A stretch of DNA of 59,012 nucleotides from an uncultured Oscillospiraceae bacterium (GTDB lineage Bacteria > Bacillota > Clostridia > Oscillospirales > Oscillospiraceae). Under the pieces are notes generated by a model. That model did not search any database. It had not been told where the DNA came from and saw only the letters and a list, made by a program, of their open reading frames with translations. Numbering within the stretch: position 1 is the first letter of the stretch; each line of letters opens with the position of its first letter. This document shows positions 20,753 through 38,772 of this stretch, piece after piece. The stretch spans positions 1-59,012 of the forward strand of contig CAJFVK010000001.1 of NCBI GenBank assembly GCA_904420435.1. Reading direction: 5' to 3'. The position numbers and the translations under genes were made by a program.

Positions 20753-20780
20753 GCCCCGGCGGAGGTTCCTCCGCCGGGGC
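20753..20780 (-). terminator. Terminator hairpin after metA
   Basis: GCCCCGGCGGAGG-TTC-CTCCGCCGGGGC, followed on the minus strand by CTCTTTCTCC. Confidence 0.65.
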
Positions 20781-20788
20781 TCCGGGCG

Positions 20789-21721
20789 CTATTTGTGGGG
20801 AATGCCCGGCAGCTGGGCCAGGTCGTAGGGGGTGGTCTGGTAGACAAAGTAGTTCAGCCAGTTGCTGTAGAGCAGGTTGGCGCAGGAGCGCCAGGTCACC
20901 CGGGGGGGCTGGGTGTCGTCGTCGTTGGGGTAGTAGTTCTTGGGCACCTCGATGGGCAGGCCCAGGTTCTTGTCCCGCAGGTACTCCTGCTCCAGGGTTC
21001 GGGCGTCGTACTCGCTGTGGCCGGTGATGAAGATCTGCCGGCCGCTCTCGGTGGACAGGGCGTAGATCCCCGCCTCCGGGGAGGTGGAGAGGATCTTCAG
21101 GGCCGGCACCTTCTCGATGTCCTCCCGCAGCACGGTGGTGTGCCGGGAGTGGGGCACCATGAACACGTCGTCAAAGCCCCGGAAGAGCATGTTGCTCCGC
21201 CGCTCCACAATGTGGGGGAAGATGCCGAAGAGCTTCTTCTCCAGGGGCACCTTCTGGATGCCGTAGTGGTAGTAGAGCCCCGCCTGGGCCCCCCAGCAGA
21301 TGTGGAAGGTGGAGTGGACGTGGGTCTTGCTCCACTCCATGATCTCGCACAGCTCCTCCCAGTACTCCACCTCCTCGAAGGGGAGATGCTCCACCGGCGC
21401 GCCGGTGATCACCAGCCCGTCGAAGTTCCGGTCCCTCACGTCGGCAAAGTGCTTGTAGAAGGCCAGCATGTGCTCCTGGGGGGTGTTCTTGGGCACGTGG
21501 CCGGCGGTGCAGATCAGCTCCAGCTCCACCTGGAGGGGGGTGTTGCTCAAAAGGCGGCTGAGCTGGGTCTCCGTGGCGATCTTGGTGGGCATCAGGTTCA
21601 AAAGCAAAATCTGCAGGGGGCGGATCTCCTGGGTGGTGGCCCGGGTTTCCGTCATGACGAAGATGTTCTCCTCCGTCAGCGTCTGAAAGGCGGGCAGCTC
21701 GTTTGGAATTTTAATGGGCAT
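20789..21721 (-). CDS. metA: Homoserine O-acyltransferase (MetA family; acetyl- or succinyl-transferring)
   Basis: 310 aa. It has [11 protein letters not shown] and [13 protein letters not shown], and is MetA-like over its full length. Confidence 0.93.
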
Positions 21722-21745: not shown

Positions 21746-23023
21746 TTACGCCTGCTCCAGGGCCTGGCTCAGGTCGGCGATCAGGTCCTCCTTGCTCTCC
21801 AGGCCCACGCTCAGGCGCACCAGGTCCGCGCTGACGCCGGCGGCCACCAGCTCCTCGTCGTTCATCTGCCGGTGGGTGGTGCTGGCCGGGTGGAGGCAGC
21901 AGGTCCGGGCGTCGGCCACGTGGGTGGCGATGGCCCCCAGACGGAGGGCCTTCATGAAGCGGCCGGCGGCCTCCCGGCCCCCCTTCACGCCGAAGCTCAC
22001 CACGCCGCAGGAGCCCTTGGGCAGGTACCTCTGGGCCAGAGCGTGGTAGGGATCCCCCTCCAGGCCGCTGTAGCGGACCCAGGCGATCTTGGGGTGGCTC
22101 TGGAGGAACCGGGCGATGGCCAGGGCGTTCTCACAGTGGCGCTCCATGCGCACGTGGAGGCTCTCCAGGCCCAGATTCAGGTAGAAGGCGCTCTGGGGGG
22201 AGAGGGTGGAGCCGAAGTCCCGCATGAGCTGGGCCGTGGCCTTGGTGATATAGGCGGCCTTGCCGAACTTGGCGGCGTAGGTGATGCCGTGGTAGCTGTC
22301 GTCGGGGGTGGTGAGGCCGGGGAACTTGTCCGCGTGGGCCATCCAGTCGAAGTTGCCGCTGTCCACGATGGCGCCGCCGATGGCGCTGGCGTGGCCGTCC
22401 ATGTACTTGGTGGTGGAGTGGGTCACAATGTCCGCCCCCCACTCAAAGGGCCGGCACAGGACGGGGGTGGCGAAGGTGTTGTCCACAATGAGAGGCACGC
22501 CGTGGGCGTGGGCGGCCCTGGCAAACTTCTCGATGTCCAGCACCGTCAGGGCGGGGTTTGCGATGGTCTCTCCAAACACGGCCTTGGTGTTGGGGCGGAA
22601 GGCGGCGTCCAGCTCCTCCTCCGTGCAGTCCGGGGAGACGAAGGTGAACTCCACGCCCATCTTCTTCATGGTCACGGAGAAGAGGTTATAGGTGCCCCCG
22701 TAGATGCTGTTGGAGGCCACCACGTGGTCCCCGCAGGAGGCGATGTTGAACACGGCGAAGAAGTTGGCCGCCTGGCCGGAGGAGGTGAGCATGGCGGCGG
22801 CGCCCCCCTCCAGGGCGCAGATCTTGGCGGCCACATGGTCGCAGGTGGGGTTCTGGAGGCGGCTGTAGAAGTAGCCCTCGGCCTCCAGGTCGAAGAGCTT
22901 GCCCATGTCCTCGCTGGTGTCGTACTTGAAGGTGGTGGACTGGATGATGGGGACCTGCCGGGGTTCCCCATTTCCGGGGTGGTAGCCCCCCTGGACGCAG
23001 GTGGTTTCGATGCGCTGGCTCAT
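21746..23023 (-). CDS. metY: O-acetylhomoserine aminocarboxypropyltransferase (sulfhydrylase)
   Basis: ATG at 23023 follows AAAGGAG. The N-terminus is TTCVQGGYHPGNGEPRQVPIIQSTTFKY and the PLP-lysine block is HSTTKYMDGH. The ORF-track extension to 23176 is rejected. Confidence 0.92.
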   Translation of the reverse strand: MSQRIETTCVQGGYHPGNGEPRQVPIIQSTTFKYDTSEDMGKLFDLEAEGYFYSRLQNPTCDHVAAKICALEGGAAAMLTSSGQAANFFAVFNIASCGDHVVASNSIYGGTYNLFSVTMKKMGVEFTFVSPDCTEEELDAAFRPNTKAVFGETIANPALTVLDIEKFARAAHAHGVPLIVDNTFATPVLCRPFEWGADIVTHSTTKYMDGHASAIGGAIVDSGNFDWMAHADKFPGLTTPDDSYHGITYAAKFGKAAYITKATAQLMRDFGSTLSPQSAFYLNLGLESLHVRMERHCENALAIARFLQSHPKIAWVRYSGLEGDPYHALAQRYLPKGSCGVVSFGVKGGREAAGRFMKALRLGAIATHVADARTCCLHPASTTHRQMNDEELVAAGVSADLVRLSVGLESKEDLIADLSQALEQA

Positions 23024-23062
23024 ACTTGATCGGCTCCTTTTCTGTGATCTCTTTGGAAACTT

Positions 23063-23097
23063 AAAAAAATAAAAGGGACCGCCCGGTGAGCGATCCC
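23063..23097 (-). terminator. Leader (attenuator) terminator in front of metY
   Basis: On the minus strand: GGGAUCGC-UCACCGG-GCGGUCCC, then UUUUAUUUUUUU. It ends about 40 nt before the metY ATG. Confidence 0.8.
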
Positions 23098-23130
23098 AAT
23101 GTACCCTTTGCTCCGGCCCCTGAAACGGGC

Positions 23131-23226
23131 TCAGCGGGAAGAGGAAGCGGCACAATGGGAACGACAAGACATGCACATGCCGAACATGTACATCTCCATC
23201 TGATCCAGCATCATGCTGCGGGCCAT
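23131..23226 (-). CDS. Met/Cys-rich leader peptide (31 aa) of the metY-metA operon
   Basis: ATG at 23226 sits 7 nt after GAGAGGAAAGGGGA. Translation is MARSMMLDQMEMYMFGMCMSCRSHCAASSSR, with 8 Met in the first 19 codons and 3 Cys. The stop is at 23131-23133. Confidence 0.6.
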   Translation of the reverse strand: MARSMMLDQMEMYMFGMCMSCRSHCAASSSR

Positions 23227-23259
23227 GGACGAGTCCCCTTTCCTCTCGTATTCACGGGT

Positions 23260-23288
23260 ATCATACCAGCATCCGCCCCGTTTGTCAA
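23260..23288 (-). promoter_or_regulatory. Promoter of the leader-metY-metA transcript
   Basis: On the minus strand: TTGACA (23288-23283), 17 nt, TATGAT (23265-23260), with TG at -15/-14. Confidence 0.7.
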
Positions 23289-23295
23289 GGCGCCG

Positions 23296-23331
23296 GGGAA
23301 AAAGGAGGCGGAGGGGCGAGAGCCCCTCCGC
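23296..23331 (-). terminator. Terminator of the upstream membrane-protein gene
   Basis: On the minus strand: GCGGAGGGGC-UCUC-GCCCCUCCGC, followed by CUCCUUUUUCCCC. Confidence 0.7.
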
Positions 23332-23376
23332 GCCAGCTACAATCAATGAGAATAGGATGAAGTTGACCAAAAAAGC

Positions 23377-23826
23377 TTACGGGTCATCTTCCAACAGGTG
23401 GCCAAAACGCTCCATGATATATTCCCGGGAGTAGACAAAATCATCCTCCGTCCAGGACATATCCAGCATGGAAACAAATCCCGCCCAGCCGCCGCATTGA
23501 TCCAATATTACGAGCAAGATCCGCCATACGTTCCAGGTTAACCAAAAGATGAAAAAGGCACCGAGTAAAGAGCTGAGCTTGGCCGGAACCCGTCGGACAA
23601 TATGATACAGGAGAACCCCCGCATAGGCGGCGGACCAAAGGGTCAAAATCCCTGTCGGATACAGGAGGAAGAAAGCGGTTCGGGCTTCCACATACCAAAA
23701 AGCGGAGAAAACACCCGACATGAGTGAATATAAAACGATGGTGGGAACCACAAGAATCAGGACAAAAAGCGTGGTCTTCTTTCCCATCCAGCCCAGCGGG
23801 GTTAAGGTTTGAACTTCATCCATCAT
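23377..23826 (-). CDS. Hypothetical polytopic membrane protein (149 aa)
   Basis: ATG at 23826 sits 5 nt after GGAGG (the frame is open from GTG 23841). It has four hydrophobic segments and is visibly more AT-rich than its neighbours. Confidence 0.6.
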   Translation of the reverse strand: MMDEVQTLTPLGWMGKKTTLFVLILVVPTIVLYSLMSGVFSAFWYVEARTAFFLLYPTGILTLWSAAYAGVLLYHIVRRVPAKLSSLLGAFFIFWLTWNVWRILLVILDQCGGWAGFVSMLDMSWTEDDFVYSREYIMERFGHLLEDDP

Positions 23827-23992
23827 GAACCTCCATTCCACAAAGCGAAGAAAGTGACGGGATGGGCAAAATTTACATCTTTAGTTTATCAAAAGATTTA
23901 ATATTTGTCAAATAATACCTTATCGCTGGTGCGAAATATCGAAAAGATTTTGAAAAAACAGGAAGGAAGGCTTTTGCCCTCCCCCCACTCCC

Positions 23993-33499: not shown

Positions 33500-33529
33500 T
33501 TGTCAGGGCGGCGTGGGCTGTGCTATACT
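33500..33529 (+). promoter_or_regulatory. Promoter of metG
   Basis: TTGTCA (33500-33505), 18 nt, TATACT (33524-33529), with TG at -15/-14. The leader is short (about 45 nt) with no T-box-sized element. Confidence 0.55.
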
Positions 33530-33579
33530 TAATAGTTGAGAAAGATTGCGCCCCGCTGGGCGTTCAGGAGGAATCGCCA

Positions 33580-35620
<2,041 letters not shown>

Positions 35621-35622
<2 letters not shown>

Positions 35623-35778
35623 GCATTTCGAGGGGGAGCTGGCTGACACCGTTGCGGCATTGCGATTCCCGGCTCTGCTGGGGCCGCCAATCGCGCCGCT
35701 CTTGCGTACCGTCGGGCCAAACCGGTTGACCGGCGCTGCCCGCGCCTGCCAACCGGGGCCCTTCCTCGAAATCAGCTC
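35621..35778. repeat. About 158-nt GC-rich unit bounded by inverted repeats, starting at the metG stop codon
   Basis: GAGC-ATTTCGAGG (35621-35633) is complementary to CCTCGAAAT-CA-GCTC (35764-35778). Confidence 0.5.
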
Positions 35779-35813
35779 GCTTACTCTGCCGCCGGCAGCG
35801 CTTCGCCGCTTTC

Positions 35814-35899
35814 CCCCCTCGCCAGTCTGCGGACTGGTGTGTGCGCCCAGGGCGCGCGAGTCAAAGTATGTTCGGCAGGCGCATGTCCTGCCGGACATG
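35814..35899. repeat. Copy 2 of the ~86-nt dispersed intergenic element
   Basis: See 1-86. It has the same module order and ends 26 nt before the PNPOx-like gene ATG. Confidence 0.75.
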
Positions 35900-38586: not shown

Positions 38587-38673
38587 GCCGGTGTGGTGGA
38601 ATTGGTAGACACAAGGGACTTAAAATCCCTCGGTAGCGATACCGTACCGGTTCGAGCCCGGTCACCGGCACCA
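38587..38673 (+). tRNA. tRNA-Leu (anticodon UAA), class II long variable arm, CCA encoded
   Basis: The acceptor GCCGGTG pairs with CACCGGC. The anticodon loop is CT-TAA-AA within AGGGA/TCCCT, the variable arm is CGGTAGCGATACCGT, and the T-arm is ACCGG-TTCGAGC-CCGGT. Confidence 0.93.
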
Positions 38674-38696
38674 TGGGATTTTAAGAAACCACATAT

Positions 38697-38772
38697 CGCG
38701 GCGTAGAGCAGTTGGTAGCTTGTCGGGCTCATAACCCGGAGGTCGCAGGTTCGAGTCCTGCCGCCGCAACCA
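38697..38772 (+). tRNA. Initiator tRNA-Met (anticodon CAU), CCA encoded
   Basis: The acceptor CGCGGCG/CGCCGCA gives a C1:A72 mismatch. The anticodon stem has three consecutive G:C pairs (GGG/CCC) flanking CT-CAT-AA. Both are bacterial initiator hallmarks. Confidence 0.88.

Follow-up and report, generated by a model that had tools for sequence, protein, structure and literature searches.

In the 59,012-nucleotide (nt) stretch of DNA analysed here (the window), which belongs to an uncultured Oscillospiraceae bacterium, the metY-metA operon is preceded by a short leader that is probably a ribosome-mediated (leader-peptide) transcription attenuator, tuning metY-metA expression to the charging of elongator tRNA-Met. 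We favour this reading because the leader has a complete attenuator anatomy in the canonical order, an extreme load of methionine (Met) codons, a conserved open reading frame (ORF) and terminator, a folding pattern that fits, and no match to any Rfam family. All leader elements are on the minus strand, and coordinates refer to the window. The operon comprises metY, encoding an O-acetylhomoserine sulfhydrylase of 425 amino acids (aa) (21746-23023, minus strand; TIGR01326, E 2e-176), and metA, encoding a homoserine O-acetyltransferase of 310 aa (20789-21721, minus strand; NF047918, E 3.5e-148).

The leader starts with a sigma-70-type promoter with an extended -10 element (23260-23288), which agrees with the consensus at 11 of 12 positions and consists of the -35 hexamer TTGACA (23288-23283), a 17-nt spacer, the TG dinucleotide (23267-23266) and the -10 hexamer TATGAT (23265-23260; TGgTATGAT). 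Judging from the sequence, transcription would start at about 23253. Over the 3.7-kb region scanned, 5 promoter-like sites were obtained, against 0.7 expected. The promoter is followed by a purine-rich Shine-Dalgarno region, GAGAGGAAAGGGGA (23234-23247), whose core AAAGGGG (23241-23235) lies 8 nt 5' of the AUG of a 31-codon ORF (23226-23134, UGA stop at 23133-23131) with the predicted peptide MARSMMLDQMEMYMFGMCMSCRSHCAASSSR. An intrinsic terminator (23063-23097) begins 33 nt past this stop codon, and is formed by a 10-base-pair (bp) stem, GGGAUCGCUC (23097-23088) with GGGCGGUCCC (23084-23075), an ACC loop and the U tract UUUUAUUUUUUU (23074-23063; U at 11 of 12 nt), with a folding energy of -17.1 kcal/mol. 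The original prediction had placed the promoter, the Shine-Dalgarno site, the ORF and the terminator in this same order ahead of the metY start, and all of them are present as described. From the U tract to the metY AUG (23023) there are 39 nt, which include the metY Shine-Dalgarno sequence GGAG (23037-23034); since this gap is too small for a second promoter, metY-metA would be expressed only through read-through of the terminator. The gene upstream ends in a terminator of its own (23331-23308), which insulates the leader promoter.

The Met-codon content of the leader ORF is exceptional. Codons 1, 5, 6, 10, 12, 14, 17 and 19 are AUG, which therefore makes up 8 of the first 19 codons with the start included, and all eight ATG triplets of the ORF are in frame; cysteine (Cys) codons are found at positions 18, 21 and 25, again as originally counted. 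Across six frames of the 59-kb window, this is the sole segment with eight ATG in 19 codons among about 118,000, and in 579 kb of related loci no 19-codon site has more than six ATG, except for copies of the leader itself. A search of the window for further leader-peptide-like ORFs 5' of terminators found none. Three other sites in the window have six ATG in 19 stop-free codons, at about 48180 (plus strand), at about 57740 (minus strand) and at 34445-34424 (minus strand), the last being out of frame with the long ORF 33529-35898; these are probably by-products of coding repeats.

In Clostridia, met genes are usually under S-box or T-box RNA control. The absence of both from this leader, noted in the original prediction, is borne out by the Rfam 15 models, which cover SAM-I (RF00162) and the other S-adenosylmethionine (SAM) families. 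With cmscan at gathering thresholds, the whole window gave two tRNAs alone, with no T-box (RF00230) and no SAM class, and a permissive scan of 22950-23420 (E<=10) gave nine irrelevant weak matches, none with E<0.02, and again neither a T-box nor a SAM class. The RF00230 model does detect T-boxes in the related loci L008, L012, L214 and L215.

The terminator may be opposed by an alternative pairing. Segment 2, CGUUCCCAUUGUGCC (23149-23163, codons 22-26), forms the 5' strand of the candidate antiterminator, and segment 3, GGUACAUUGGGAUCG (23091-23105), its 3' strand, which includes the first 7 nt of the terminator 5' arm. Read directly from the sequence, the two segments pair at 13 of 15 positions (12 Watson-Crick and one G-U), so both the pairing and its overlap with the terminator are as originally proposed; the full antiterminator hairpin (23170-23088) has a predicted energy of -34.8 kcal/mol. 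The earlier scheme, with its 2:3 and 3:4 pairings, stands as far as it goes, but it missed a further hairpin, P1 (1:2), that would make termination the default. P1 (23152-23214) was found by RNAalifold on three leader versions (that of the window and the homologs on contigs L214 and L215, described below), and by single-sequence folds. It pairs the Met-codon stretch made of codons 5-6 and 8-11 (23214-23195) with 23163-23152, with a predicted energy of -22.5 kcal/mol (-25.3 kcal/mol in L214), and its apical stem, AUGUACAUGU/GCAUGUGCAU (23193-23171), is invariant across the three versions. The 3' strand of P1 is also the 5' strand of the antiterminator, segment 2 being common to the antiterminator and the P1 lower stem. 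The predicted folds are consistent with a four-segment design as in trp, where 1:2 would be P1, with segment 2 sequestered, 2:3 the antiterminator, giving read-through, and 3:4 the terminator, giving a stop.

Over the span that begins at codon 5 and closes with the terminator stem, the ribosome-free minimum is the combination of P1, a middle hairpin and the terminator (-59.3 kcal/mol), compared with -55.1 kcal/mol when the antiterminator is forced over the same span. Since P1 plus terminator is the ribosome-free minimum-energy state, termination would be the default. The effect of a ribosome was modelled by masking a 30-nt footprint, from -15 to +14 around the A-site codon, and reading out the terminator pair probability. 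With the masked ribosome on Met codons 6-17 this probability is 0.00-0.22, whereas with the ribosome on codons 19-31 it is 0.89-0.99. The original prediction had a ribosome at the stop codon masking the antiterminator, and in this it was mistaken: the footprint of such a ribosome starts just 3' of 23149, and the masking would occur while codons 19-31 are being read. Pairing of the 5' untranslated region (5'UTR) with the 3' end of the leader did not reach significance against dinucleotide shuffles, either in the window or in the L214 lineage.

From these elements we infer leader translation, ribosome stalling, Met-responsive read-through and a kinetic order of folding, which would operate as follows. 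Transcription would begin at the strong promoter near 23253, and a ribosome would load on the leader Shine-Dalgarno site as the RNA leaves the polymerase. When Met is plentiful, the ribosome would pass the seven internal AUGs into codons 19-31, covering segment 2 (23163-23149), so that segments 3 and 4 could pair, the terminator would form and RNA polymerase would halt at the U tract (23074-23063). If no ribosome loads, P1 would sequester segment 2, and termination would follow by default. When charged Met-tRNA is scarce, the ribosome would stall at one of the Met codons 5-17 and melt P1, leaving segment 2 free, and the free segment 2 would pair with segment 3, extending the middle hairpin across the terminator 5' arm and allowing read-through into metY-metA.

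A homologous leader was identified in one other lineage. When the 31-aa peptide was run with phmmer against a library of 1.84 billion representative proteins, one match was obtained, P0140 (E 2.3e-5), which has the sequence MMVTVLGKGEQK-MRHAMLMDMMEMYMFGMCMSCRSHFSVQTAR and is encoded on contig L214, directly 5' of metY; a variant, P0141, is found on contig L215. A word-indexed search of 5.8 billion clusters with the 43-aa homolog recovered only the homolog itself. In its gene-finder version, P0140 begins with 12 residues that overlap the -10 box, and the true start of the L214 leader, to judge from the nucleotide context, is the AUG 3' of the Shine-Dalgarno sequence GGGGAAAGGAG, at a distance equal to that in the window. 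With this start the L214/L215 ORF, MRHAMLMDMMEMYMFGMCMSCRSHFSVQTAR, has exactly 31 codons and nine AUGs, all in frame. The -35 and -10 hexamers and the 17-nt spacer are identical between the window and L214.

The MetY proteins of L214/L215 share 89-92% identity with that of the window, and 76-78% of the codons for identical residues are unchanged. A 47-nt core (23154-23200), comprising Met codons 10-19 followed by UCU UGU CGU UCC CAU, is identical to L214 at all 47 positions and takes in the first 10 nt of segment 2, whereas strong divergence is seen in codons 2-9, codons 25-31, the 5'UTR and the spacer 3' of the stop codon. Within the diverged part, Met codons have been both lost and gained in frame: codon 6 changes from AUG to CUG in L214, codon 7 from CUG to AUG and codon 9 from CAG to AUG, and the total goes from eight to nine. 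No insertions or deletions relative to L214/L215 are found within the ORF, while the 5'UTR has one of 2 nt and the region after the stop codon has them of 13, 1 and 4-7 nt. The terminator is kept in both homologs, with one compensatory change of an A-U to a G-C pair and two one-sided changes, and the A to G change in its 5' arm in the L214 lineage is still able to pair with the segment 2 U, as G-U. Together, these changes suggest selection for the translated frame and the number of Met codons, not for the whole peptide sequence. The case for the sensing of Cys, which the original prediction had offered alongside that of Met, is weak, since Cys18 alone is constant in the three versions, while Cys21 is replaced by Arg in L215 and Cys25 by Phe in both L214 and L215. 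We also considered whether synonymous conservation of the core is excessive, as an RNA-level constraint would cause, and rejected this, because the 11 of 12 unchanged non-Met codons for identical residues do not differ significantly from the roughly nine expected from metY.

On attenuation of the trp/his type, as originally put forward, we find that it is the best explanation of the anatomy, but that the antiterminator on which it depends is statistically marginal, and this and several further observations weigh against it. The 2:3 duplex has an energy of -20.9 kcal/mol, against a mean of -15.9 (standard deviation 2.7) for dinucleotide shuffles, 5% of which equal it (p~0.05), and the fold energy of the whole leader is unexceptional (z = -1.57 versus shuffles). 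In L214 the conserved 2:3 helix is reduced to CGUUCCC with GGGGUCG, and the best 2:3 pairing is a lineage-specific one, CUGUUCAG with CUGGACAG, which covers the terminator 5' arm and loop and is equalled by 47% of shuffles. In the mask model, a ribosome at the stop codon (codon 32) leaves segment 2 uncovered and gives a terminator probability of 0.13; Met-replete termination would therefore hinge on timing or steric effects. When queued ribosomes are assumed, with everything 5' of the stall masked, the window terminator keeps a probability of 0.37-0.84, and in L214 one stalled ribosome fails to displace the terminator. These equilibrium predictions are fragile and sensitive to their assumptions, and a kinetic switch is beyond them. 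Met starvation would, in addition, also deplete initiator fMet-tRNA, reducing leader initiation and favouring default termination, a weakness of any Met attenuator.

The phylogenetic distribution is a further point on the same side. The original prediction looked to related metY upstream regions for conservation, and what was found is mixed: L214 and L215 keep the ORF, the Met load and the 3:4 pairing, but their 2:3 pairing is at chance level and about 90 other metY/metA loci have no such leader, including MetY relatives at 88-92% identity, so that the element is present in two lineages only. The leaders of the conspecific contigs L081, L206 and L207 are 100% identical to that of the window, and the covariation evidence therefore amounts to one comparison. 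The organism itself is known from metagenome assemblies alone.

Other explanations of the leader have to be set against the attenuator. That the short ORF encodes a functional Met/Cys/His-rich peptide, metal- or redox-related or simply a Met-rich product, with a merely leaky terminator and Met codons that are no sensor, seems to us quite unlikely. It would account for the identity of the central 15 residues, MEMYMFGMCMSCRSH, in the two lineages, the MxM and CxxC-like spacing does recall soft-metal-binding motifs as generally known, a 75-aa Cys-rich HMA-domain gene occurs directly 5' of metY in L082 and L217, and a weak local HCAA similarity links the leader peptide to the HMA-like protein (E 0.007, a single comparison). 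However, the residues outside the core diverge freely, and even inside it Val-Arg replaces Ser-Cys in L215; when the leader and HMA loci are aligned as DNA, nothing apart from the metY ribosome-binding region is credibly homologous, and both the phmmer and the word-indexed searches place the peptide in the L214/L215 cluster alone. A terminator that blocks the sole route to metY-metA also makes little sense unless it is conditional, and the enriched amino acid is the end product of the downstream pathway. In a further alternative, a translated leader that affects the terminator would respond to translation capacity or stress in general (slow ribosomes, antibiotics, (p)ppGpp) and not to methionine, or the effect would be on mRNA stability or metY translation and not on termination. 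There is precedent in ermC-type leader attenuators, which sense general ribosome stalling (PMC2965389), and the equilibrium folds are indecisive on a Met-specific geometry. Nevertheless, the downstream genes are for methionine biosynthesis, the codon bias is extreme and specific to AUG, the number of AUGs is maintained between lineages by in-frame turnover, and the metY Shine-Dalgarno site is unsequestered in the predicted folds. We regard this possibility as unlikely, if a little easier to entertain than a functional peptide.

The conservation of the core at 47 of 47 nt while its flanks diverge could instead reflect an AUG-rich hairpin acting as a ribosome-independent RNA sensor, of SAM or methionine, of a protein, or of tRNA-Met through its CAU anticodon, with the ORF being incidental. 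The core hairpin is stable (-17.4 kcal/mol alone and -22.5 kcal/mol with the lower stem), and the small SAM riboswitch classes are generally known to be of similar size. Against this, no Rfam family matches, the SAM classes and T-box included, and the nucleotide identity of the core is within the coding expectation (11 of 12 codons versus about nine). All eight or nine AUGs, the gained ones included, fall in one frame, the ORF length is kept at 31 codons with insertions and deletions outside it only, and the Shine-Dalgarno sequence is correctly spaced in both lineages; frame coherence, ORF length and a Shine-Dalgarno site would be superfluous for a sensor that is not translated. We consider such a sensor very improbable. 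Its more elaborate form, in which the 47-nt hairpin would be a new Met-responsive RNA class, capturing uncharged tRNA-Met or binding SAM or methionine, or a dual device combining an RNA ligand with ribosome stalling, is the one to which we give least credence.

The leader-peptide attenuator that we prefer can be compared with several known systems. In the enterobacterial trpL, hisL, leuL, thrL, pheL and ilvL leaders, as in the window, a promoter, a Shine-Dalgarno site, an ORF rich in codons for the end product, a terminator and the structural gene follow in this order, and the 1:2/2:3/3:4 logic predicted for the window leader, with the regulatory codons within segment 1, would be shared as well. 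In contrast, there is no sequence homology between them, the window leader would sense methionine, which is outside the classical set, its Met codons are interspersed (MMxxxMxMxMxxMxM) and not tandem, and it is found in a high-G+C clostridial host. The stop codon of the window leader also lies 15 nt 3' of segment 2, and not just 5' of it as in the enterobacterial leaders; a terminating ribosome would therefore no longer mask segment 2.

The closest parallel is found in Campylobacter, and because of it the suggestion that the mechanism is undescribed for this operon type has to be withdrawn. A MetL leader peptide was predicted in 2013 upstream of MetYA (cj1727c-cj1726c) of Campylobacter jejuni by Porcelli et al. 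(PMC3847290), its start codon has been detected by start-site ribosome profiling, and a second Met-rich upstream ORF (uORF) was proposed upstream of a D-methionine transporter in the latter study (PMC11955535). MetL of C. jejuni, C. coli as well as C. doylei resembles the window leader in its metY-metA operon, in the proposed mechanism, in its restriction to a narrow clade, and in that its short ORF is carried by a 5' RNA which is itself short and terminated (PMC3847290). In contrast to the window leader, however, MetL (MSYISFNLMLSSFCMRAWHA) has 20 aa and two internal Met codons, versus seven or eight, and belongs to a different phylum; in both cases the mechanism is a predicted one. The window peptide has no alignable similarity to MSYISFNLMLSSFCMRAWHA by eye, and its phmmer search found P0140 only, so the likeness is one of mechanism and gene context, not of descent.

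Streptomyces lividans provides another proposed metL leader, upstream of metNIQ (PMC8079986), which similarly has Met and Cys codons, near the end of the peptide (...ARCMCRRMCAF), but is leaderless, precedes a methionine transporter, has no clear intrinsic terminator and contains far fewer Met codons. Met T-boxes located 5' of metY or metA in Clostridia have in common with the window leader the genomic position, the tRNA-Met charging signal and the conditional read-through of a terminator, but a T-box binds the tRNA directly and does not need translation. T-boxes and leader peptides are documented to replace one another at the same genes, and in Firmicutes leader peptides that take the place of T-boxes have been noted for histidine, with the His leader of hisS/hisZ (PMC2965389). 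Other leader attenuators known from Firmicutes and Actinobacteria include the Leu-rich ilv peptide of Staphylococcus aureus and the mycobacterial poly-Cys uORFs (PMC5794164, bioRxiv 10.1101/834739). These Gram-positive attenuators (His, Leu-rich ilv and poly-Cys) make it clear that Gram-positive bacteria do use ribosome-mediated attenuation and that it can stand in for T-boxes, but they sense other amino acids and have other sequences than the window leader, and the mycobacterial Cys uORFs, in contrast to it, reportedly lack an intrinsic terminator. In full-text literature searches, no Met leader peptide came to light for Firmicutes or Clostridia. The 5'UTR of the Xanthomonas met operon was considered as a precedent and set aside, as it resembles a SAM-I riboswitch and not a leader peptide.

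The element is thus lineage-restricted and non-homologous to known Met leaders, the mechanism itself being already known, and it appears to be an independent solution at the place held by a T-box in some relatives. If the attenuator reading is correct, this would be the clearest Met-specific leader-peptide attenuator so far, with 7-8 sensing codons versus two in the Campylobacter candidate, and, in the literature searched, the first Met leader peptide in Clostridia. It would also provide a compact test case of attenuation for the one amino acid that is also required in initiation. The locus illustrates a rapid turnover of regulation, given that MetY proteins at 88-92% identity are preceded by a T-box, by an HMA gene, by nothing recognisable or by the Met leader, and elements of this kind are missed in gut and metagenome genomes by gene callers and Rfam-based annotation.

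The wider set of metY and metA relatives shows the same diversity upstream. No Met-rich upstream ORF was found at 80 metY loci of GTDB species representatives (MetY 76-83% identity). Three loci, L053, L015 and L080, have 5-7 Met per 40-70 codons in AT-rich DNA, which we judged to be due to chance. Among the Rfam-scanned GTDB-representative loci, 2 of 20 have a T-box 5' of metY (L008 and L012), which in L008, from Oscillibacter ruminantium, has an AUG (Met) specifier; in L209 a T-box lies 5' of metA, and inspection by eye gives GAACAUGG as its candidate AUG specifier. No Met leader is found in L083-L085, L210 and L216, and the upstream regions of L083, L085, L210 and L216 are short or unrelated. 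Locus L086 was rejected as a leader homolog, since its match comes from an Asp-rich coding repeat read out of frame; it was the only non-repeat match among the matches listed for the metagenome-wide pattern ATGATG-N9-ATG-N3-ATG-N3-ATG-N6-ATG-N3-ATG, the remainder being (ATG)n microsatellites. MetY proteins that are 76-83% identical occur across contigs labelled Collinsella, Slackia, Mailhella, Erysipelotrichaceae, Lachnospiraceae and Oscillospiraceae, and the metY upstream regulatory region has been repeatedly replaced among these taxa. This combination of a MetY that is unusually well conserved between distant taxa and of replaced upstream regions suggests that the gene has spread horizontally and that its control was re-invented locally.

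In L082 and L217, where the small HMA-domain gene precedes metY, this gene (194-421 in L082 and 684-914 in L217) encodes a Cys-rich protein of metal-binding type, 75-76 aa long, and ends 34-44 nt from metY, with no terminator between the two; it thereby takes up the place of the leader ORF in the window. The MetY proteins of both loci are about 91-92% identical to that of the window over the N-terminal 263 residues compared, and the metY ribosome-binding region (A[C/T]CA[C/T]AGAAAAGGAGC) is common to the window, L082 and L217. That the leader might be what remains of such an HMA-like gene was considered and dropped, as the HCAA match stands by itself and there is no homology at the DNA level.

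A complete T-box (RF00230, 98-102 bits) is present in L214 (232-459, minus strand) and L215 (191-419, minus strand), on the strand opposite to the leader and about 90 nt 5' of the Met-leader promoter. Its specifier is AUC (Ile), and its terminator leads directly into a convergent ORF, at the 3' end of the latter. The two contigs are short and show no gene downstream of the T-box, which could be an orphan, act in antisense or be an artefact of contig shortness.

The conspecific contigs L081, L206 and L207 diverge completely from the window about 10 nt 5' of the -35 hexamer, where an extra ORF of 135 aa is inserted, and because this break is just 5' of the promoter, the promoter, leader and metY would act as one unit. 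The inserted ORF lies between a small membrane-protein gene and the metY promoter, as seen when L081 (1271-2245) is compared with 23290-23841 of the window, and likewise in L206 and L207. The membrane-protein gene itself (154 aa in the window, 133 aa in L081) drops from about 100% to about 55% nucleotide identity past roughly 25 codons, while its flanks are nearly identical.

At the other end of the operon, directly 3' of metA, a terminator-like hairpin (20753-20780, minus strand), with a 12-bp stem that includes 11 G-C pairs, is likely to mark the operon end. Elsewhere in the window (38587-38772, plus strand), a tRNA-Leu gene (anticodon TAA) and a tRNA-Met-type gene (anticodon CAT) are adjacent to each other.

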